Origin: Candidatus Heimdallarchaeota archaeon
GTDB lineage: Archaea; Asgardarchaeota; Heimdallarchaeia; Heimdallarchaeales; Heimdallarchaeaceae
NCBI GenBank assembly: GCA_021399395.1
Contig: JAAFKJ010000116.1
Coordinates: 1-36,565 of the forward strand
Length of the DNA: 36,565 nucleotides
Direction: 5' to 3'
Shown here: positions 3,512 through 30,210 of the stretch, one piece after another
How positions within the stretch are numbered: the first letter of the stretch is position 1
Layout of the letters: every line of letters starts with the position of its first letter
Position numbers and translations under genes: made by a program
Notes under the pieces: model-generated
Seen by the model: the letters and a program-made list of their open reading frames with translations, nothing else
The model's database searches: none
What the model was told of the DNA's origin: nothing

Positions 3512-3610
3512 GACCCCGTAGCTCAGCTGGATAGAGCACCAGCCTTCTATGTAAAGCTAATATGCGAAGATAGTTGGGGGTCGCGCGTTCGAATCGCGTC
3601 GGGGTCGCCA
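3512..3610 (+). tRNA. tRNA-Arg(TCT) with 22-nt canonical intron (3550-3571)
   Basis: GACCCCG/CGGGGTC acceptor stem, anticodon TCT at 3546-3548, BHB central helix CTTC/GAAG, encoded CCA. Confidence 0.95.
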
Positions 3611-14454: not shown

Positions 14455-15165
14455 TTACTCTTCATCATCTGTGGATGTAAACCTTTCAACAATATATTGT
14501 CCAATTATCTCAAAAGCCTTCTCAATATTTGATCCAGTCTTAGCTGATGTTTCCAAAAAGAAATTCTCTATTGAGAGATCTTTGATTTTCTTATTGAGTT
14601 CATCTATAAACTCTTGCGCTTCTTCTTGAGTTACTTCTTGTTCGTCTACAAGATCAACTTTGTTTGCGAGAATTATAACTGGAACTACACCTCTTCCACT
14701 AAATTGATACAATTCTTCAATCCAGTTACTTAGATTGAGAAAAGTCTCTCTACGTGTGGTATCAAAAACGGCAAGAGAACCAAAACAACCCTTGAAAAAT
14801 CTTGGTCGTACGTTTTTAAACATTGGTTGCCCTGCTAAATCCCATATTTGATACTTAATCTGATACTCGTCAACTTCCTTTGTTGTTGCAGCAAAATCTG
14901 CACCTAAAGTAGTCAAATGTTCTTTCTGAAAACCATGGCCTAGATATCTTTGCCGGATTGAAGTTTTTCCAACAGCAGCATCCCCAATAAGAACTAGCTT
15001 TATCATATAAGCGTTTGTGGTAGATCGTTGCTTTGTCTCCTCTTCAGTTTCCTTCTTCTCTGTAATAGGTTTTTCTTTGTGTTTGTCTATGTTCTCTTTG
15101 AACATCACGGGACCTTTACCAGATTCTTTCTTGGATTCATCTGAAGATTGCTTCTTCTTAGCCAT
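14455..15165 (-). CDS. Ras-superfamily (Rab-like) small GTPase
   Basis: G1 GDAAVGKTS, G2 TTLGADF, G3 WDLAGQ, G4 NKVD, G5 ETSAK. Confidence 0.95.
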   Translation of the reverse strand: MAKKKQSSDESKKESGKGPVMFKENIDKHKEKPITEKKETEEETKQRSTTNAYMIKLVLIGDAAVGKTSIRQRYLGHGFQKEHLTTLGADFAATTKEVDEYQIKYQIWDLAGQPMFKNVRPRFFKGCFGSLAVFDTTRRETFLNLSNWIEELYQFSGRGVVPVIILANKVDLVDEQEVTQEEAQEFIDELNKKIKDLSIENFFLETSAKTGSNIEKAFEIIGQYIVERFTSTDDEE

Positions 15166-16033: not shown

Positions 16034-17053
16034 ATGGGCGTTGCACGTGATATTTTGTCTAGATTTCTGCAGGGACTCTCTATAAAGTGGGAGATGAAAG
16101 AAAAATATCACTTAGCAGCAAAAATGGGATATTATAGTTATTATGTGGGCGGAGGAGAATCTGCTGAACTCTTGAAACTTGCAGCTTTAGAAATGAAGGT
16201 TGAGAAGTACGATTCTGCGATTCAATTCCTCGAAAAATATCTTGAGGAAAACAAAGATTCTGTTAAAGCACTTCTTCTATTAGGAATAGCACAAAGGCAA
16301 AATGGAAAATATGAGGAAGCAATAAAAACCCATCTGAAATGCTTAAAGAAAGGAGAAGAAAATGCTAATGTTCTCTATACTTTAGGTTTAGATTATGAAA
16401 AAGCAAAGAAAATCAGAACGGCTAAAAGATATTATTCGAAAGTTATAGAAACTGAACAAGCTTTTGCACAAGCATATTTTCGTCTAGCTCACCTCTATGT
16501 GCAAGAGAAGAAGTATGATCTAGCTGTAAATCTATATCTAGATGGTTTATCTCTTAGGGAAGGAACAGCTAAAGATTGGATAAATCTTTCACTATGTTAT
16601 TTAATGACATCAAATCTTAAGGCAGCAGAAAAAGTTCTAGTAGAAGCCTTGGAGATTTTTCCCCAATCATCGGAAGTTCTTTTTGCGTTGGGAACTTGCT
16701 ATATTAAGAAGAGAAATTATAAGAAGAATGCAATTATTGTAGCAAAACTAGATGAGAGAGAAGAGATCAACTTAGCATTGTCTCTAAAGGTAAAAGAAGC
16801 ATTAGATAGGAAAAACTATGAGTTGTTAGAAGAACTATTAAAACAATTCGATAAACAAGAAAGAACTGCAGAGTATTGGTATATGCAATCACTAGTAGAA
16901 GCAAACATAAGCGATGAGAAAAAGGCAATTTCTTCCTTAAGAAAAGCGGTAGCAATAAATCCTAATCTAAGAAAGGAAGCTATAAAAGATGATAATTTTG
17001 CAGTAATAAGAGAACTAGTGGAATTCAAGAATATAGTATATCCAAGAAAATAA
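16034..17053 (+). CDS. Tetratricopeptide repeat protein
   Basis: Multiple 34-aa TPR-like repeats (ALLLLGIAQ...YEEAI; VLYTLGLDY; AYFRLAHLY). Confidence 0.88.
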   Translation: MGVARDILSRFLQGLSIKWEMKEKYHLAAKMGYYSYYVGGGESAELLKLAALEMKVEKYDSAIQFLEKYLEENKDSVKALLLLGIAQRQNGKYEEAIKTHLKCLKKGEENANVLYTLGLDYEKAKKIRTAKRYYSKVIETEQAFAQAYFRLAHLYVQEKKYDLAVNLYLDGLSLREGTAKDWINLSLCYLMTSNLKAAEKVLVEALEIFPQSSEVLFALGTCYIKKRNYKKNAIIVAKLDEREEINLALSLKVKEALDRKNYELLEELLKQFDKQERTAEYWYMQSLVEANISDEKKAISSLRKAVAINPNLRKEAIKDDNFAVIRELVEFKNIVYPRK

Positions 17054-17289: not shown

Positions 17290-17319
17290 TCAAGATAAGA
17301 AAAATTGACTTCTAAAGGA
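17290..17319 (+). repeat. 30-bp direct repeat, copy 1
   Basis: TCAAGATAAGAAAAATTGACTTCTAAAGGA, identical to 18094-18123. Confidence 0.93.
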
Positions 17320-17379: not shown

Positions 17380-18039
17380 ATGAGAAGACTATTCAGACGT
17401 ATTCTTTCTCTTTGTCTTACTTTCTTAGTTATTCTTAGTCTTTTTATCCCACTATTCCAAGCATCTTATTCTGGATATACAATTTACACTCGCATAAATA
17501 ATATAGACTTTCCTCCGCACAAATCACCTATGACATTTTTCCCAAACCACACTCTGTTTGAGTTTGATTATTCTCTGGAGCTTATTAATCCATCAGGGAT
17601 AGTTCTCTTTATCAGAACACCTTCAACATGTTTAATCTTTAATTCGGGGAACATAACTTTCGAAGATGATCAACATGAAGGTTATATCTTAAGTGGAAAC
17701 ATTGAATGTGGAGCAGCCTTTACAAACCATGAAATTCCACCAGGAATCACTGACGTATCATTCAGATTCTATATTTCTATTAATGGCACACTTGAAAGCC
17801 TTCCTTACGGGAACTACACAATAAGTATTGCAATCCCAGATTATTTGGAAGAGCATGAATATGTACATTATCCCTCTACTATTTATTACTCAAATTCAAA
17901 TCTAGAGATACTTCACAAAGGTGAGAACGAAACTTTCACTTTTCCTACAGTTCCATCTTTTCAAAGCATCTCCTCCTATTTATTGTTAACTTTCATGGTA
18001 GGGTTTACTATTGTGATTGTCATAAGAAGAAAGTATTAG
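17380..18039 (+). CDS. Hypothetical secreted/surface protein with signal peptide and C-terminal TM anchor
   Basis: Basic-hydrophobic N-terminus, beta-rich core with several N-x-T sequons, C-terminal VPSF-hydrophobic-RRKY. Confidence 0.8.
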   Translation: MRRLFRRILSLCLTFLVILSLFIPLFQASYSGYTIYTRINNIDFPPHKSPMTFFPNHTLFEFDYSLELINPSGIVLFIRTPSTCLIFNSGNITFEDDQHEGYILSGNIECGAAFTNHEIPPGITDVSFRFYISINGTLESLPYGNYTISIAIPDYLEEHEYVHYPSTIYYSNSNLEILHKGENETFTFPTVPSFQSISSYLLLTFMVGFTIVIVIRRKY

Positions 18040-18093: not shown

Positions 18094-18123
18094 TCAAGAT
18101 AAGAAAAATTGACTTCTAAAGGA
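18094..18123 (+). repeat. 30-bp direct repeat, copy 2
   Basis: Identical to 17290-17319. Confidence 0.93.
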
Positions 18124-18175
18124 TAGAAAAGTTTTTTATTAAAAGAAAGGGAGAAAAAACAAGAAACAAAATCAA

Positions 18176-18249
18176 GCGGAGTTGGCAGAGTCGATATGCA
18201 GCGGTCTGCAAAACCGTGAACAGGAGTTCAAATCTCCTACTCCGCTCCA
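18176..18249 (+). tRNA. tRNA-Cys(GCA)
   Basis: GCGGAGT/ACTCCGC acceptor, anticodon arm GCGGT-CTGCAAA-ACCGT, U73, encoded CCA. Confidence 0.95.
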
Positions 18250-18307
18250 AATTCTTTTCTAATATTCTTAGGAAAACTTTATTTTATTTACATTGAATAT
18301 CGATAAG

Positions 18308-19309
18308 ATGAATAAATCATTTGCATATTTCCTTATCCTAGGTTTCATTTTTGGTGGTCTCCTTTCTTCTGTCTCTTTCAGTGTTGCTAAACAATCTTCT
18401 CCAGCTGATTTTCCTTCTTCAGAGCTTAATAGAAGGAAACATGATCCAATATTAATAGAAAGTCAAAGTCAGCTTGTGAGTTATACTTTTCCTGGCTCAG
18501 GTACCAAAGATGATCCATACAGAATAGAAAACTACAGGATTATCTATGAATCTAGCTATGGTGAGGATGTTAGAGGGATCTATATCATGTCTATATCATC
18601 TTATGTTCTTATAAGAAATAACTATATCAAAGGATTTTATTGTGGAATTGATGTAATTAAAACAAGTGACAAGGTCAGTGTTATGGCAAATGAACTTGAT
18701 GCAAATGAGTGCGGAATAGAATTTCATTATACGACGAATCAACGAATAATTGGGAATAAAATTGTTAATAATCGTGAAGGTCACGCTATTTGTCTTTACA
18801 GTAGTTATAATATTACAGTTCAATATAATGAAATAACGGATTGTGGTTGGATTGGTATAAACACAGGATATGGTGTAACAAACTGCGAGTTTTCTTATAA
18901 TACCGTAGAACGAAGCGGAAAACTAGTACCAAAACCTGAATTTCCTTTTTTCGCATATCCGTATGGTATAAGATTGAGCAGTTTAGCATTCGATAACATT
19001 GTCCATCATAATAATTTTGTGGATAATAATCCTGAGGGAACATGTCAAGCATTGGATGATGGTGAGACGGGAAATCAATGGTATGATCATGTAACACAAA
19101 CTGGAAATTATTGGTCCGATCTGGGCAACAAAGATGTTTATTATATAGAAGGCCCAAGTTCAAACAATGATATTTATCCTCTCAAAGAATTTCTACAGTA
19201 TGATAATCCTTACAACACTGCAGGTGATTTAATAAGTTGGATAATTTCGATTATGGCTATTTTTTCCTTTACAGCAGTTGTAATGTACAGAAAGAAGATA
19301 CTTCTTTGA
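18308..19309 (+). CDS. Right-handed parallel beta-helix (NosD/CASH-like) surface protein
   Basis: Signal peptide, PILI...FPGSGTKDDPYRIENY, repeated N.I..N...GI, HHNNFVDN, GNYWSD, DIYPL, C-terminal TM plus RKK. Confidence 0.88.
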   Translation: MNKSFAYFLILGFIFGGLLSSVSFSVAKQSSPADFPSSELNRRKHDPILIESQSQLVSYTFPGSGTKDDPYRIENYRIIYESSYGEDVRGIYIMSISSYVLIRNNYIKGFYCGIDVIKTSDKVSVMANELDANECGIEFHYTTNQRIIGNKIVNNREGHAICLYSSYNITVQYNEITDCGWIGINTGYGVTNCEFSYNTVERSGKLVPKPEFPFFAYPYGIRLSSLAFDNIVHHNNFVDNNPEGTCQALDDGETGNQWYDHVTQTGNYWSDLGNKDVYYIEGPSSNNDIYPLKEFLQYDNPYNTAGDLISWIISIMAIFSFTAVVMYRKKILL

Positions 19310-19319
19310 ATATTGCTGA

Positions 19320-19342
19320 TCCAATTCTCCGTCTCCGCTCCA
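19320..19342 (+). repeat. Degenerate tRNA-Cys 3'-end fragment (att-like)
   Basis: TCCAATTCTCCGTCTCCGCTCCA vs tRNA TTCAAATCTCCTACTCCGCTCCA (19/23); similarity continues through AA(C/T)TCTTTTCT past the CCA. Confidence 0.8.
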
Positions 19343-19414
19343 AACTCTTTTCTTAGTAATTCTACTCCTTCTTATTGCATAATCCTTTTAAATTTTGAAT
19401 TTATTCTGCTTTTT

Positions 19415-20500
19415 ATGTGTACAATTCGAGGAAAGGAAAAAATAGTTTTTACTATGCTGTTATTGGGAATATTTTTATTTTCAGCTAATTCACAAGCATC
19501 TTTACTGGGTGTTTATTATCATGACACTTTTGGTTCCTATGGTACTGGAGATGGACAATTTAACAATCCAATTTGTTTAAGCACAGATGAAGCTGGCAAA
19601 ATTTATGTTGCAGAAAAAGAAAATCATCGAGTTCAGATTTTTGATTCTGATGGCACTTTTATCACCAAATTCGGTTCCTATGGAACAGGAGATGGGGAAT
19701 TTGATTGGGCCCATGGTATAACTGTAGATTCTTCTGGTAAAATATATGTTTCAGACCTTCGCAACAACAGAATTCAGGTTTTTGATTCTTCTGGTGTTTT
19801 TCTTTTCAAATTTGGTTCATTTGGTACAGCTGATGGTGAGTTAAATTCTCCTAGTAATCTAAGATTTAACTCAAGTGGGTATCTGTATGTAGCAGATTCA
19901 GAAAATCATCGAATTCAAGTTTTTGATTCTTCTGGCAATTTCGTTTTTAAATGGGGTGTTCAAGGAACAGCTAATAGTGAGTTTGACACTCCAAATTTTG
20001 TCCAGTTCGATTCAGAGGGAAAAGTATATGTTTCAGATAGAAATAATGCTAGAGTTCAAATCTTTGAACCTGATGGTACTTTCATAACAAAATTTGGTTC
20101 TTCAGGTACTGGAAATGGGGAATTTGCTTCTACAAGAGGAATAGCGATAGATAGAAGTAATCGAATTTTTGTTAATGACCCAAGTAATCATCGTATTCAG
20201 GTTTTTGATTCTGAGGGTACCTTTATTGGTAAAATTGGTTCCTATGGTACTGGCGATGGAGAATTCAATTTACCTACAGGAATAGATTTGTTATATGAGG
20301 GTAATACTACCTTTATCTGCGTTTGTGAGCACAATAATAACAGGATACAAATTCTTCGTTACGATGAAGAAATAATAACTGTGATAAAAACTATTACAAT
20401 TACAGAGGAAGCTGGATTTACACTTACCATTCTCATAACTACATTCGCTTCTATGATAGTTTTAGTATACCTGAAAAAGAAAAGAAAATCAAATGTTTAG
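19415..20500 (+). CDS. NHL-repeat six-bladed beta-propeller surface protein
   Basis: Six ~47-aa repeats FGSxGTGDGEFxxPxGIxxDxxGxIYVxDxxNxRIQVF, signal peptide, C-terminal AGF-TM-KKKRK; probable ATG at 19415. Confidence 0.92.
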   Translation: MCTIRGKEKIVFTMLLLGIFLFSANSQASLLGVYYHDTFGSYGTGDGQFNNPICLSTDEAGKIYVAEKENHRVQIFDSDGTFITKFGSYGTGDGEFDWAHGITVDSSGKIYVSDLRNNRIQVFDSSGVFLFKFGSFGTADGELNSPSNLRFNSSGYLYVADSENHRIQVFDSSGNFVFKWGVQGTANSEFDTPNFVQFDSEGKVYVSDRNNARVQIFEPDGTFITKFGSSGTGNGEFASTRGIAIDRSNRIFVNDPSNHRIQVFDSEGTFIGKIGSYGTGDGEFNLPTGIDLLYEGNTTFICVCEHNNNRIQILRYDEEIITVIKTITITEEAGFTLTILITTFASMIVLVYLKKKRKSNV

Positions 20501-20516
20501 TACTGTAAGAGTGTAA

Positions 20517-20562
20517 GTCTGCAAAACCGGTTACCGGAGTTCGAATCTCCTACTCCGCTCCA
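20517..20562 (+). repeat. tRNA-Cys 3'-half copy (attR-like)
   Basis: GTCTGCAAAACCG-GTTAC-CGGAGTTCGAATCTCCTACTCCGCTCCA matches tRNA-Cys from the anticodon arm to CCA with few substitutions; no 5' half present. Confidence 0.92.
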
Positions 20563-20587
20563 AACTCTATTTTAGCGTGTCTTCACT

Positions 20588-21700
20588 TCATAAAACTTTC
20601 TTCAAAGCTTTAAGGAATCTCTCAACATTTTTTGGTTGTGCAGTATGTCCCATTAACCCAATTCGCCATATCTTGCCTGCTAGTGGTCCTAACCCCCCAC
20701 CAATTTCGATTTTATGTTCAAACCGCAGTTTCTTTCTAACTTTTGCTTCGTCAACACCTTCGGGTATAGTTACCGCATTAAGCATTGGAAGACGATATTT
20801 GTCTTCAACATACATTTTCAAACCCAATTCTTCCAACCCTTCTTTTAATTTATTGTGACATTCTTCATGCCTTTGAAATACTTTTTCCGCTCCTTCTTCA
20901 AAGAAGAGTAAGAGCGCTTGGTATAGTGCGTACAGCATGTTTATTGGTGCTGTGTGATGATAAGATCTTTTGTGATCCTTTTGCCAATATTCTCCTACCA
21001 AACTCATATCCAGATACCAGTTTGGAACTTTTGTTTTCCTATTTTTAATCTTTGACAAAGCCTTTTCTGAAAAACTAACAGGGGCTAAACCTGGAGGTAC
21101 TGATAAACATTTTTGAGATCCGCTGTATAGAGCATCAATTCCCCAATCGTCAACTTTTACTGCAATTCCTCCGAGACTTGTAACTGCATCTACTAAGAAT
21201 AGACTCTCAGTTTCTTTAATTATGTGTGATATCTCCTCAACTGGGTTCTTCACTCCTGTAGAGGTTTCTGCATGGACCATTGCGATGAGATTATAGGGAT
21301 TATCTGCTAGTTTTTCTTTTACTTGTTCGGGATCGATAGGTTTCCCCCACTCAAATTCCATACTGTCTACATCTGCACCTAAACGTGTAGCTACTTCGTA
21401 CATTCGTTTTCCAAAAACTCCATTTATCAATATTAGGACTTTATCTTTTGGCTCAATCAAATTAACAAAGCAAGTTTCCATCCCTGCAGATCCCGTTCCA
21501 GATACTGGAATTGTCAATCTATTGTTGGTATTCAATATTTTTTGTAGTAATACTTGAATCTGATCCATTATCTTAATGAAATGGGGATCTAGGTGCCCTA
21601 AAGTGAAACGGTTGAGGGCTGCATATACGTCTGGGTGGACACAAGAAGGTCCCGGTCCCATTAGCAAGATTTCGTCAATATCATCTAACAAGTTTGTCAT
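20588..21700 (-). CDS. Alanine/serine-glyoxylate aminotransferase family (class V PLP)
   Basis: LLMGPGPS, SGTGSAGME, HAETSTG, DAVTSLGG, SGSQKCL, YHHTAP, RIGLMG. Confidence 0.94.
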   Translation of the reverse strand: MTNLLDDIDEILLMGPGPSCVHPDVYAALNRFTLGHLDPHFIKIMDQIQVLLQKILNTNNRLTIPVSGTGSAGMETCFVNLIEPKDKVLILINGVFGKRMYEVATRLGADVDSMEFEWGKPIDPEQVKEKLADNPYNLIAMVHAETSTGVKNPVEEISHIIKETESLFLVDAVTSLGGIAVKVDDWGIDALYSGSQKCLSVPPGLAPVSFSEKALSKIKNRKTKVPNWYLDMSLVGEYWQKDHKRSYHHTAPINMLYALYQALLLFFEEGAEKVFQRHEECHNKLKEGLEELGLKMYVEDKYRLPMLNAVTIPEGVDEAKVRKKLRFEHKIEIGGGLGPLAGKIWRIGLMGHTAQPKNVERFLKALKKVL

Positions 21701-21898
21701 GGTTTTTCACGCTTCTAAGGAATTGTAATATCTCATCTGATAATAAAATGAAACTATTAAAAAACTATATGTGAAGCTGTTCATGTAGTGATTCAATTCT
21801 AGTTTTTTCTTGGTCTAATATTCTTTAGGTATTATGACATTTTAAATGCACAATTATGATATCTTTCACCCGGAAACCCGATTTAATAGGTGATTCTT

Positions 21899-22183
21899 AT
21901 GGTCTATGATGTAATCAACAAGATTTGCAAGAACGCGAAGATGAATCACGAACCGTTTTATAATTCGGTAGAGTTAAGGGGAGATCTAATATTGCTGTTC
22001 AGAGATAAATTGGTTAAGGAATCAGAAACAAAGAAATCCATGATGTATGAAAAATACATAGAATGGAAAGAAACAAAGGACAATGAAGTGATAGAAGAAA
22101 TAGATGGAGTAATAGCTAGATTGAGAGATTATTACAAGGAGAAATTGATAATATTCTACAAAACAGCTGAAATTAGAGTATAA
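21899..22183 (+). CDS. Hypothetical protein
   Basis: AGGTGA SD 5 nt before ATG 21899; purine-rich, coding-like composition; no recognised motif. Confidence 0.6.
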   Translation: MVYDVINKICKNAKMNHEPFYNSVELRGDLILLFRDKLVKESETKKSMMYEKYIEWKETKDNEVIEEIDGVIARLRDYYKEKLIIFYKTAEIRV

Positions 22184-23263: not shown

Positions 23264-23668
23264 TTGTCTATATACAGTTCCAAATACGGAATGGAGTCTA
23301 TCAACGCCGAATTACTAGAATGTATAAACGAATTACGATTTAGATCTATAGGGATAGTCGATGTTGCTGTTGTGTCTCTTGAAGGTTTACCCTTAGTATC
23401 TCTAGTCTTAGAAAGAATAGAAGAGACTAGATTTGCTGCAATGACTGCTGCAATGGTTTCGCTTGGTGAGCGTGTAGCAGTAGAATTGAATAAGGGTTTA
23501 TTGAAGAAAATCTTTGTAGAAGGAGATCATGGTTACATAATTTCGATGCAAGCAGGAGAAAATGCTGTTTTAACAGTCAGTGCAACTATGGACACAAAAT
23601 TGGGATTGTTATTCTTAGATATGCAACGAACTACAGAAAAAATCGCTAAAATCCTCTCTTACCATTAA
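23264..23668 (+). CDS. Roadblock/LC7 domain protein
   Basis: AVVSLEGLPL...FAAMTAAMVSLGERVAVEL...VEGDHGYI...AG..AVL...KLGL. Confidence 0.92.
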   Translation: MSIYSSKYGMESINAELLECINELRFRSIGIVDVAVVSLEGLPLVSLVLERIEETRFAAMTAAMVSLGERVAVELNKGLLKKIFVEGDHGYIISMQAGENAVLTVSATMDTKLGLLFLDMQRTTEKIAKILSYH

Positions 23669-23817
23669 ATCTAGCATATTAATCAGTTTATCTTACTGCA
23701 GTTTGTGTAATGATAGTCGCTAAACTCAAAAACTAATTATCAAACAAAAATTCTCAGGACGAAAAAGAGAAAAAGGACCGATTCTAACTTATTTTGATTT
23801 ATTTGGTACAAGCAACT

Positions 23818-25971
23818 ATGTATTCACTAACAGAAGTTAGACAAAGGATAGTGAAAACTGAACAATCTTTACAAGAATCATTAGAAAGAGATGGAAAGAA
23901 GAGAAGTGGTTCGTATTACACTCCAGATTTTATTGTTGAATACATGGTAAATAATTCTATATCACAAGCAATAGTTGATAGAATAAACAGTTTACAGAGT
24001 AGATCTGAATTTAGAAGCTTAAATGAGTTAATCAAGTGTCAAGATACTAAGATTCTCACCCTCTTATTCAGAGAGATACTGCCTAATTTTATGGTATGTG
24101 ACATTGCAATGGGGTGGGGGGTATTTTTGCTGCATACTTTTGATTTCTTTTTTTCGTTTTATCTTGCTTTTAACTCGTTTATTGTTGAAAATATGAATAA
24201 CACTTTGGAACAAGAGAAAACAGCAAAAGAGTGGATTATTGATAATATCATTTCAAACAATATCTGTGGGGTTGACTTATCTCCCATTTCAGCAGAACTA
24301 GCAAATTTGAAATTGATTGAGAAGGCATTGCTACATTTAAATCAAGAAGCTGCGGTTTTACCTAATTTCAATCTATTCACAGCTAATAGTCTTTTAGATA
24401 AACAGATCTTCTCTAATGATTTAAAAGAGACTTTTAATAAAGAGTATTTTGATGTAATTATTGGTAACCCCCCCTATATTAATGTGAAAAAATTAGATGT
24501 GAATGAAAGGAGAACATATTCTAGGTTATATCAAACCTATAATCCAAATGGGGATATCTCTAACGTTTTTTGGGAAAGAAGTTTAGAACTCTGTAAACAA
24601 GATGGCCGAATATCACTAATTACTCCGAGATATTGGTTAGAGGGAAATGATAGTGATAAACTTCGTGAATATCTGCTATCAAACTCCTCAATTAATGAGA
24701 TAATAGATTTCAGGAGTAACAGATCGCTTTTTCTTTCAACTGAAAATAAACTAGGTGTCGATACGGCTATAATTTCAATCAAAAAGCATGAAAATCAAGA
24801 GAATAATATATCTGTGTTAATTTCTCTCAATAATCACACTATAAACTCAATCGATAAAACTAGTTTCCGACAGCTTACCACTGATCAGAACTTATTATCT
24901 AAAAAACGTTGGACCTTTGAAAAAACTCCTATTATAAAAATGCTTGAGGATAGTGCAGATTATTATCTAGGCGATGATAAAAAACACAAAGAATTTAGCG
25001 GAATTTGTCATCTAGGCAAAGGTTGTTCCACTGGAAATAACAAGATTTTCAAATTAGCAAAGTTGTCTGACAGGATTTTCGAAGGTCACAATAAGATTAA
25101 TGTTAGTTTGGAGAAACAAGAATTGAGTGCTCTAAGATTATTAGTGAAGAACAGCGATATTTCGAAATTCAAATGGACACCCAGATCTGATTACTGGATA
25201 TATCTGAAAGGTAAGGATATTGAAGATTATCCTAATATTAAGGACTATCTTTCAAATTTTACAACTGTTTTAGAAAGAACTCAAAAGAAATATGGTTTGA
25301 AAGAGTATTACGATTATGCTGCTTATCGTTCTTTGGATTTGATATCCAATCAATTAAAAGTAATATGTCCGTATCAAGCAATAGAGAATAGATTCGCTTT
25401 GATTGCTGATAGAAACGTATCAACGATTAATGAAACTGATGTAATTACTTTAGTTATTAAAGAGAACATGAGAGAAAAAATAGATTATATGTATTTACTT
25501 TCAGTGCTAAATTCAGAGTTAATTCAATATTTTAGTATGATAAACAACAAAAAAATATATAATTTGTATGATTTTCGTTCCAATCAAATAGCTAATTTTC
25601 CTATTAAGAAATGTAATAAACAGCTTAGTTTTAGACTTCTAGCATCTCTTCTAATACAAATTTTGAGGAATTATCAAGAATCAAATTCAGATATTCCTGG
25701 AACTAGTTCACAATCATTATTTTCAATTATTAACGCACAGGTCTATGAGTTGTATTTTGAGGATTTGTTATCAACAGAGCTTAATGAGACAATAGAGAAA
25801 TATTTTGCGTCATTTGTTCCTAAAGAGCTGGATTCTCTTAGTATGACAGACATATCTAAGATGCTCAAAAGCATTTTAGATGATGATTCAGTAAGAAAAG
25901 ATTTAGAGAATATTAATAATCTTATTCAGGTTCAAGATATTCGTAAGTTTATCAAACTCTATTCAAAATAG
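23818..25971 (+). CDS. Amino-(N6-adenine) DNA methyltransferase, TaqI/Eco57I-like gamma class with C-terminal TRD
   Basis: GSYYTP, motif I variant DIAMGWGVF, GVDL, FDVIIGNPPY, YLLSVLNS. Confidence 0.9.
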   Translation: MYSLTEVRQRIVKTEQSLQESLERDGKKRSGSYYTPDFIVEYMVNNSISQAIVDRINSLQSRSEFRSLNELIKCQDTKILTLLFREILPNFMVCDIAMGWGVFLLHTFDFFFSFYLAFNSFIVENMNNTLEQEKTAKEWIIDNIISNNICGVDLSPISAELANLKLIEKALLHLNQEAAVLPNFNLFTANSLLDKQIFSNDLKETFNKEYFDVIIGNPPYINVKKLDVNERRTYSRLYQTYNPNGDISNVFWERSLELCKQDGRISLITPRYWLEGNDSDKLREYLLSNSSINEIIDFRSNRSLFLSTENKLGVDTAIISIKKHENQENNISVLISLNNHTINSIDKTSFRQLTTDQNLLSKKRWTFEKTPIIKMLEDSADYYLGDDKKHKEFSGICHLGKGCSTGNNKIFKLAKLSDRIFEGHNKINVSLEKQELSALRLLVKNSDISKFKWTPRSDYWIYLKGKDIEDYPNIKDYLSNFTTVLERTQKKYGLKEYYDYAAYRSLDLISNQLKVICPYQAIENRFALIADRNVSTINETDVITLVIKENMREKIDYMYLLSVLNSELIQYFSMINNKKIYNLYDFRSNQIANFPIKKCNKQLSFRLLASLLIQILRNYQESNSDIPGTSSQSLFSIINAQVYELYFEDLLSTELNETIEKYFASFVPKELDSLSMTDISKMLKSILDDDSVRKDLENINNLIQVQDIRKFIKLYSK

Positions 25972-30136: not shown

Positions 30137-30210
30137 TGGTACGCCAACCGGGATTTGAACCCGGGTTCCCAGCTTGGAAGGCTGAAGTCCTACCGCTAGA
30201 CTATTGGCGT
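30137..30210 (-). tRNA. tRNA-Gly(TCC)
   Basis: Anticodon arm TCAGC-CTTCCAA-GCTGG, acceptor ACGCCAA/TTGGCGT, encoded CCA. Confidence 0.93.

Follow-up and report, generated by a model that had tools for sequence, protein, structure and literature searches.

A hypervariable additive genomic island anchored on tRNA-Cys in a Candidatus Heimdallarchaeota archaeon

How do genes for surface proteins come to stand one by one behind a tRNA gene, each closed off by a broken copy of the 3' end of that tRNA? The question is raised by a 36,565-nucleotide (nt) stretch of DNA from a Candidatus Heimdallarchaeota archaeon (GenBank assembly GCA_021399395.1, contig JAAFKJ010000116.1, positions 1 to 36,565), hereafter called the window. 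The window is one whole contig of an assembly of 201 contigs that is 82% complete (genome G000; G, C, and L numbers denote genomes, contigs, and loci). The segment under study starts with an intact tRNA-Cys gene at position 18176 and passes through two single-gene modules to a tRNA fragment that ends at 20562. Our results indicated that this feature is a real, hypervariable, tRNA-anchored additive island. With moderate confidence, we interpret the segment as the tRNA-proximal part of that island, formed by serial recombination inside tRNA-Cys and then by trimming.

The anchor of the array, tRNA-Cys(GCA), lies at 18176 to 18249 on the plus strand, where it was called by both ARAGORN and Rfam (tRNA, 58.7 bits), and its anticodon stem is fully paired (5/5). 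A 16-nt word, CTCCGCTCCAAAYTCT, consisting of the last 10 bases of the tRNA and the next 6 nt, is present in three copies, all on the plus strand, at 18240, 19333, and 20553; for this triple occurrence the expectation was 0.01, and it was reached in 0 of 100 shuffles. The distal copy belongs to fragment f3 (20514 to 20562, plus strand), which covers nhmmer model positions 26 to 74 (E = 1e-12) and which in the repeat analysis shares 58 nt with tRNA-Cys at 86% identity, beginning in the anticodon loop and ending 12 nt beyond the CCA. The proximal copy belongs to fragment f2 (19320 to 19342, plus strand), found in the repeat and nhmmer searches, which retains only model positions 52 to 74 and then runs into a trailer-like AACTCTTTTC. 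Fragment f2 is weak when taken alone (E = 0.25); it belongs to a 32-nt, three-copy family with 88% identity that reaches 10 to 11 nt beyond the CCA, and its acceptor strand is of the allele type of another species, unlike the resident 5' half. The tRNA 3' piece is the sole repeat common to the units of the window. Behind f3 stands the native tRNA trailer (AACTCTATTTTA..., 20563 to 20587, plus strand), matching the trailer that follows the intact tRNA in relatives with an empty site. Thus, the tRNA-Cys gene and two downstream 3' copies proposed in an initial annotation, made from the sequence alone, were confirmed by the word count against shuffles, by nhmmer, and by the repeat families, and the spacings given there proved right to within 3 nt upon a sequence check. 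Short public contigs (Logan) from two runs of one study reproduced all window junctions at 100% identity; these runs possibly represent the source sample and are not independent. In two runs of a second study, the Logan contigs cover the flanks only and depart from the window sequence at 18130 and 20598. None of the Logan contigs recorded a joint, a circle, or an empty site, and they are too short to inform on mobility.

The two modules are laid out alike. From the CCA of tRNA-Cys, 58 nt of AT-rich leader (18250 to 18307, plus strand), the first 10 nt of which resemble the native tRNA trailer in sequence and in the 32-nt repeat family, lead to an ATG at 18308. This opens the gene of module 1 (18308 to 19309, plus strand), which codes for a 333-amino-acid (aa) right-handed beta-helix protein (NosD-like; Pfam PF13229, 2.4e-13, and PF05048, 7.5e-12), and its stop at 19309 is 10 nt away from f2. 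Another 72 nt separate f2 from the ATG at 19415 of the module 2 gene (19415 to 20500, plus strand), which codes for a 361-aa six-bladed NHL propeller (Pfam NHL, 1.2e-41, five NHL repeats; also matched in NCBIfam), and 13 to 16 nt separate its stop at 20500 from f3. As judged by hydropathy, the beta-helix protein starts with a signal-like hydrophobic leader and ends in a hydrophobic segment with K/R behind it, and the NHL protein has a signal-like N terminus and a C-terminal hydrophobic stretch likewise followed by K/R. The coordinates and the hydropathy at both termini thus agree with the earlier statement that both genes are co-directional with tRNA-Cys and that their products are membrane anchored. 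The NHL tail gave a Loki-CTERM match below threshold (16.3 bits versus an NCBIfam cut-off of 19.9).

As for their origin, both genes have a GC content equal to that of the genome. The beta-helix gene belongs to a paralogue family with 6 to 47 matches per genome, but its best non-self identity in the genus is 38%, and the window's gene itself was found in none of the 24 other genus genomes. The NHL gene is present in the genus only as the window copy, a 46% paralogue on another G000 contig, and a C-terminal remnant in G001. A wide search with the NHL protein yielded 4,629 matches, the best at no more than 51% identity and mostly to bacterial-labelled propellers, which did not indicate a donor.

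What stands at this position elsewhere was learned from 24 other species-level genomes of the genus, 22 of which yielded an intact tRNA-Cys. On the left, a TPR-repeat gene (16034 to 17053, plus strand; Pfam TPR families) is conserved in the genus, and of the 22 other tRNA-Cys loci, 13 have it upstream of the tRNA according to tblastn. On the right, tblastn revealed a conserved flank made up of a 97-aa gene (21890 to 22183, plus strand), a 304-aa gene, and a Roadblock gene. The interval between tRNA-Cys and this right flank ranges from 137 to 11,824 nt in the 14 genomes having both flanks on one contig, so that variable cassettes at a fixed position, as expected of an additive flexible genomic island, were found; in a fifteenth genome, G010, the interval exceeds 12,598 nt and reaches the contig end. 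Two genomes carry an empty site, in which the tRNA-Cys trailer leads into the right-flank 97-aa gene after 140 nt (G013) and 137 nt (G014). In G009 and G011, the empty-site trailer stands after the distal tRNA fragment instead. Identical gene sets between the flanks are confined to the pairs G013/G014, G007/G020, and G006/G009. In 6 of 23 genomes (G000, G001, G009, G010, G011, and G012), the contig with the intact gene also carries co-oriented tRNA-Cys 3' fragments behind it, and three further genomes have such fragments on other contigs. These data bear out the expectation of the initial annotation that module number, order, and content would vary in relatives while the junctions stay fixed: there are two empty sites and no fixed synteny of the two genes. 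Nor does the segment map inside a large integrase-bearing element, as it sits between conserved chromosomal flanks. A direct repeat of the tRNA 3' part and an empty site in relatives, two of the signs by which a tRNA-targeting element is recognized, are present.

The array extends beyond f3. A class-V aminotransferase gene (20588 to 21700, minus strand; Pfam PF00266) follows the trailer, and flank comparison assigned the next interval (21701 to 21889) to its promoter region and then to the promoter of the conserved right-flank gene. A tRNA-Cys fragment expected at 21701 to 21889 gave no nhmmer match and has been lost in G000. In G001, G009, and G019, the aminotransferase gene has tRNA-Cys or a fragment on each side, and a degenerate far-side fragment remains in G021. 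Because the gene is thus bounded in relatives, the array in G000 is at least three modules deep. The aminotransferase is 85 to 93% identical and conserved genus-wide, and in six further genomes the gene occurs in two other genomic contexts. Together with about 115 nt upstream (window positions 20588 to 21815), it forms a discrete block in three unrelated contexts (L033, L035, L037, L038, L039, L041, and L045), which gives the impression of a single core-like gene that was moved as a unit. No near-identical cassette common to divergent genomes was found in the genus, the beta-helix reaching at most 38% identity and the NHL remnant 67 to 69%; the aminotransferase reaches 85 to 93% but is genus-wide.

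The tRNA gene itself varies as well. Its identity to tRNA-Cys of G001, G007, and G020 is 82, 77, and 77%, versus 99, 99, and 99% for a control, tRNA-Gly(TCC) at 30137 to 30210, and the positions that differ between species lie in the D loop, the anticodon stem, and the T stem, among others. Such divergence would be expected if, as we propose, the 3' halves are replaced repeatedly.

Islands of this kind have a precedent. In Alteromonas, additive flexible genomic islands have been described beside tRNA genes, with a partial tRNA repeat after the inserted cassettes (PMC4898812). The tRNA-Cys locus resembles these islands in its fixed tRNA-side position, its variable cassette number and content, its downstream partial tRNA repeat, and a cargo for interaction with the environment. 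Unlike them, it resides in an Asgard host, its units often hold one gene within about 1.1 to 1.3 kb, no cassette is near-identical between species, no integrase, integrative and conjugative element, or integron is nearby, and a TnpB-like/RNA module is associated with the site in relatives.

We propose that tRNA-Cys is a hot spot in the genus, into which modules would be inserted repeatedly by crossing over within the anticodon loop or close beside it. With each insertion, the tRNA would be rebuilt from an imported 3' half, and the previous half would be displaced downstream as a fragment. Because every insertion would push the previous half outward, the newest module (beta-helix) should lie beside the tRNA and older ones farther out (NHL, then the aminotransferase). 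Fragment f3 would accordingly be the displaced former 3' half of tRNA-Cys, and the present 3' half of the resident gene would have arrived with the newest module. The modules would come without a recombinase gene of their own, those of relatives often measuring several kb with a TnpB-like gene and an RNA at the start, and deletion would trim them until one gene and its promoter remain between two fragments. A site-specific recombinase acting in trans is the favored candidate for the enzyme.

Possible signs of the proposed crossover are preserved in the fragments. The anticodon stem is paired 5/5 in 20 of the 23 intact tRNA-Cys genes. In the five fragments that reach into the stem, the 5' strand mismatches the 3' strand, leaving 3 to 4 of 5 pairs (3/5 in f3). 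Two fragments are clear hybrids: the f2 of G001 follows the G010/G004 type on the left side of the anticodon loop and its right side is the G013 allele without a mismatch, and the f1 of G010 is of the G005 type for 13 nt on the left and of a different type on the right. Both are joined at the invariant loop CTGCAAA, in line with the part of the initial annotation that placed the crossover in the anticodon arm.

Archaeal tyrosine integrases use tRNA 3' halves as att sites, and a scheme of crossover sublocations in tRNA genes was reportedly set out by Williams in 2002. The locus is like tyrosine-integrase tRNA elements in having an intact tRNA plus a displaced 3' fragment, in tandem accretion with the newest unit beside the tRNA, and in hybrid fragments that point to an anticodon-loop crossover. 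It is unlike them in that no integrase was found in the modules, the window, or the assembly, that the modules here are far smaller than proviruses or aloposons, and that locally repeated inserts are also found 5' of the tRNA. In Heimdallarchaeum, elements integrated at tRNA genes have been described (PMC8813620).

Recombinase families were searched in six-frame translations of G000, where absence from an 82%-complete genome falls short of proof. No match was obtained for PF00589 (tyrosine recombinase), PF01797 (HUH Y1 transposase), or PF16795 (SSV-type), and a split SSV-type integrase flanking the element was likewise not found with PF16795, a search that short N-terminal pieces would escape. 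PF00239 (serine recombinase) matched four times, never on the window contig, and two of these matches are in IS607-like elements. The other two serine recombinases are small and stand alone, at C20:20050-20808 and C86:3969-4700, each beside a secreted-protein gene, the one on C20 adjoining a beta-helix paralogue; possible roles are those of invertases or of recombinases acting in trans. Among all 25 genus genomes, PF00589 exceeded the cut-off in 12 and PF16795 in one, the latter away from tRNA-Cys. The larger modules of G010, G011, and G012 encode SIR2-TPR, RING-finger, PLD, LRR, DUF4365, and unassigned proteins, and Pfam detected no integrase among the genes scanned there, some small open reading frames (ORFs) being left unscanned. 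The earlier prediction of no integrase in cis is thus upheld (no PF00589 or PF16795 match in G000, no PF00239 match on the contig), but the orphan XerA- or SSV-type integrases that it had suggested looking for did not turn up in G000 with PF00589 or PF16795.

Several observations weigh against serial recombination at the anticodon loop followed by trimming. No recombinase tied to the tRNA-Cys site was identified in G000 or in the arrays examined in relatives. The tyrosine recombinases of relatives were considered as the enzyme and rejected, since the 8 fetched loci, of 21 matching places listed, contain neither a tRNA nor a tRNA-Cys fragment; the same 8 loci showed no direct repeat of at least 18 nt. 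With regard to the crossover, the left arm of the window's f3 has only 4 nt in common with another allele, so that its case as a hybrid is weak, and the fragment 5' ends are spread over positions 17 to 54 in nhmmer. Fragment f2, expected to be the youngest, is the shortest. Neither an RNA remnant nor any other scar of a larger element was found in the window's two modules, and their trimming is thus argued by analogy only. Finally, inserts on the 5' side of tRNA-Cys, between 30- to 67-nt repeats of the promoter region, are unexplained by an enzyme acting on the tRNA 3' half.

These 5' inserts lend weight to Campbell-type homologous insertion of DNA from related genomes. In the window, an 804-bp insert is bounded on the left by one copy of a 30-nt direct repeat (17290 to 17319, plus strand; a perfect 20-nt repeat, 30 nt in the alignment), and the second copy, seen in the repeat analysis and the alignment, lies within the conserved tRNA-Cys promoter region (18094 to 18123, plus strand). 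Its sole gene codes for a 219-aa protein of unknown family (17380 to 18039, plus strand; no Pfam or NCBIfam match), which tblastn found in the genus only in G000 and G001, at 92% identity. The same 30-nt repeat pair surrounds the 219-aa gene in G001, and in G021 a 67-nt repeat of the tRNA-Cys promoter region surrounds a different, 3.1-kb insert.

According to this explanation, no dedicated enzyme would be needed, as circular or linear DNA carrying the locus of a related genome would insert by homologous or short-homology (Campbell-type) recombination and duplicate the shared local sequence; the tRNA 3' half would simply be the best-conserved stretch. It accounts for 5' inserts between repeats of local non-tRNA sequence (30 nt in G000 and G001, 67 nt in G021), for a duplication in G005 and G012 that spans tRNA, spacer, and part of the TnpB-associated RNA, more than 100 nt altogether, for the variable fragment lengths, and for cassette genes with the GC content of the genome. 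The Alteromonas islands, too, are attributed to illegitimate recombination (PMC4898812). Against it, diverged alleles have long identical runs in two places only, 11 nt at the anticodon-loop word and 10 nt at the 3' end, which are short for homologous recombination, both clear hybrids are joined at the anticodon loop, and the recurrent use of precisely one site by many species suggests site specificity. We consider this explanation unlikely.

Another alternative is the one put forward in the initial annotation, an integron-like platform on which non-autonomous single-gene cassettes, each with one tRNA-derived site, would be handled singly by a recombinase encoded elsewhere and would diversify the cell surface. 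Integrons, including archaeal ones, consist of ordered, mostly co-oriented, often single-gene units between short repeated recombination sites and form a hypervariable platform. The tRNA-Cys array shares this layout of ordered units, a short repeated site-like element, and hypervariability. Unlike integrons, it has no IntI-type integrase (0 matches to PF00589 in G000) and no attI, its anchor being a tRNA gene; its repeats are tRNA 3' pieces and not attC hairpins (no attC covariance model was run); its genes carry their own AT-rich leaders of 58 to 72 nt; two units are co-oriented and one is inverted; and its units show evidence of being trimmed leftovers. The integron analogy therefore fits the layout but fails on membership, with neither IntI nor attC.

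Single-gene units between tRNA and fragments do recur, in eight instances from five genomes: the beta-helix, NHL, and aminotransferase units of G000, the aminotransferase and a 244-aa gene in G001, the aminotransferase in G009, a DUF4365 gene in G010, and a 502-aa gene in G012. The units of G010 and G012 were considered as one shared cassette and rejected, as they are not homologous. In addition to this recurrence, the movement of the aminotransferase and its upstream 115 nt or so as a block in three unrelated contexts and the lack of an integrase in cis suit such a platform. So do the NHL units of G000 and G001, which are 67 to 69% identical in protein versus 92 to 93% for the flanking genes and are bounded by fragments from different alleles; this identity gap and the different alleles would allow independent acquisition.

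However, the tightness that the initial annotation had read as the mark of purpose-built cassettes can arise by deletion, as seen from RNA remnants, a decayed NHL gene, and stepwise RNA loss. Modules of relatives at tRNA-Cys include some of 5 to 10 kb, and G001 has a decayed NHL gene of which only the C-terminal quarter is kept. Seven truncated remnants of the TnpB-associated RNA stand at the starts of gene-poor modules, always with the tRNA-proximal end kept. In G012, three successive copies of this RNA, one full and two truncated, lie behind tRNA-Cys and behind each fragment. The aminotransferase module retains a 36-nt RNA remnant in G009 and G019 and none in G000, G001, and G006. One module of G001 holds the full RNA without its gene, a small ORF, and the NHL remnant; the N terminus of the ORF (L034:12100-12320) is charged, a hydrophobic stretch comes next, and by eye the whole looks like an archaeal pilin-type signal. 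These comparisons between genomes demonstrably point to deletion as a process that trims modules at the tRNA-Cys locus.

Single-gene cassettes are further disfavored in that the site also receives larger modules with several genes, several single-gene units were once longer, the aminotransferase unit is in reverse orientation, each gene has its own AT-rich leader, and no identical cassette occurs at two array positions or in two genomes. Public contigs revealed no circular junction or joint, although they are too short to be informative. The units that had been predicted at other tRNAs were not found in G000, where tRNA-Cys alone is accompanied by fragments. A second array seemed to exist at tRNA-Leu on C43, where two 41-nt "fragments" lie 32 kb apart; it was rejected, as these are two intact intron-bearing tRNA-Leu genes. 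Altogether, we regard an integron-like platform as doubtful, and purpose-built single-gene cassettes are a weaker account of the units than serial insertion and trimming.

In relatives, though not in the window, the site is also linked to a TnpB-like module. Across the genus, 14 full copies of a conserved structured RNA lie 35 to 50 nt behind tRNA-Cys, and 12 of these loci, in 12 genomes, retain a gene for a 640- to 650-aa TnpB-like protein (for example, L046:234-2213 in G010, L048:2095-4077 in G011, and L047:1948-3942 in G012). The gene and the RNA are on the opposite strand, tail-to-tail with tRNA-Cys, and the RNA overlaps the 3' end of the gene. A profile of six family members matched TnpB and Cas12f chains in the PDB over the C-terminal half. 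The zinc ribbon and the NAA-N motif align, the third RuvC Asp is replaced by His in the whole family, and NCBIfam gave weak IS607/IS200 TnpB matches. With the RNA behind the tRNA-Cys of G001, Rfam found the tRNA only, plus one sub-threshold match treated as chance. We found no published description of a TnpB-like protein with a tRNA-derived guide in the literature searched.

The same RNA scaffold occurs in three IS607-like paralogues of G000 (C28:23886-26312, C195:973-3358, and C132:63398-65338), which have left- and right-end sequences in common. A serine recombinase precedes the TnpB-like gene in two of them and has been lost from the third. Each of the 24 other genus genomes contains the family as well, with 1 to 12 matches. 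The three paralogues diverge right after the scaffold, whereas the 14 tRNA-linked copies go on with 19 to 20 nt of conserved sequence, antisense to tRNA-Cys positions 7 to 25. This putative guide matches tRNA-Cys alleles of other species at up to 19/19 positions; among 23 alleles, the host's own ranked 16, 3, 9, 17, 19, 18, 21, 16, 16, 20, and 11 in the eleven gene-bearing genomes scored (median 16 to 17). Other family members stand tail-to-tail with tRNA-Pro(TGG), where the guide position equals tRNA-Pro 22 to 38 (16/17), or with tRNA-Leu, where 9 to 10 nt match (L115:4680-4922 in G017 C136, L114:1351-1616 in G023 C14, L112 in G014 C47, and L111 in G003 C175, for both tRNAs together). In a comparison of target-adjacent motifs (TAM), the left flanks of the G000 IS607-like copies and of the tRNA-Cys target were inconsistent.

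The module recalls IS607 elements with TnpB and a guide RNA, as presented in a review (PMC13565253), in its TnpB/Cas12f-like C-terminal half and its structured RNA at the gene 3' end, and the G000 paralogues are paired with a serine recombinase as well. It differs in the protein of about 645 aa with His for the third RuvC Asp and in tRNA-linked copies that lack a recombinase, have a guide that derives from the tRNA and is conserved, and stand in synteny in different species, and it is absent from the window.

The TnpB-like module is thus a possible driver of insertion. One scheme would combine it with the ideas above into an integrase-free capture platform of Asgard archaea, in which the TnpB-like protein and the tRNA guide target modules, the 3' halves serve as recombination sites, and the window's units are cassettes or fresh leftovers; we find this quite improbable. 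Very improbable, too, is that the TnpB-like protein and its tRNA-guided RNA direct or drive the insertion or homing of modules into tRNA-Cys, with the window holding the remnants. What speaks for such guidance are the 14 RNA copies behind tRNA-Cys with 12 gene-bearing loci, the antisense stretch conserved exactly where the G000 IS607-like copies diverge, its better fit to other species' alleles than to the host's own, the tRNA-Pro and tRNA-Leu pieces at the guide position of other family members, and the incoming modules of G005 and G012, which carried their own RNA copy. However, the window holds no RNA copy or remnant, a cut of the TnpB type would be expected close to the 5' end of the tRNA and not in the anticodon loop, and the fragment starts are not fixed at position 26. 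IS607-type elements produce no target duplication (PMC13565253). The activity of the protein is uncertain because the third RuvC acidic residue is His throughout the family, and the rank pattern may be exaggerated, since the genomes are related and do not count as independent samples. Finally, scarcely credible is the view that there was no history of insertion and that the fragments are chance matches or debris of local duplications, for which f2, by itself just 23 nt at E = 0.25, could be cited, and which is already contradicted by the three copies of the 16-mer, a count reached in 0 of 100 shuffles, the identical trailer at empty sites, and contents that vary between the same flanks among relatives.

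Other features of the window may be recorded here. Near the locus are genes for a Ras-family small GTPase (14455 to 15165), a Roadblock/LC7 protein (23264 to 23668), and an Eco57I-type restriction-modification methylase (23794 to 25971). The contig begins inside a tRNA (positions 1 to 83; Rfam, 5' truncated), the 3' 30 nt of which equal tRNA-Ser genes on two other contigs, and its start is probably an assembly break at a repeated tRNA. A 99-nt tRNA-like gene at 3512 to 3610 (ARAGORN, His anticodon ATG; Rfam tRNA, 51.6 bits) has an unassigned tRNA-like counterpart on contig C55 (83% identity) and is probably a misread intron-bearing tRNA.

To return to serial recombination inside tRNA-Cys and subsequent trimming, the locus presents a single tRNA gene as a landing pad, seen through empty and filled sites in one genus. 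Surface-protein, metabolic, and defense-like genes are gained and lost at tRNA-Cys within species-level time, and the tRNA itself is rewritten. Should the responsible enzyme prove to act in trans or to be guided by RNA, genes would be captured here by a new route, and a new programmable targeting system might be involved; otherwise, the locus would still illustrate additive islands cleanly in archaea and could serve to mark strain-level differences in surface proteins.

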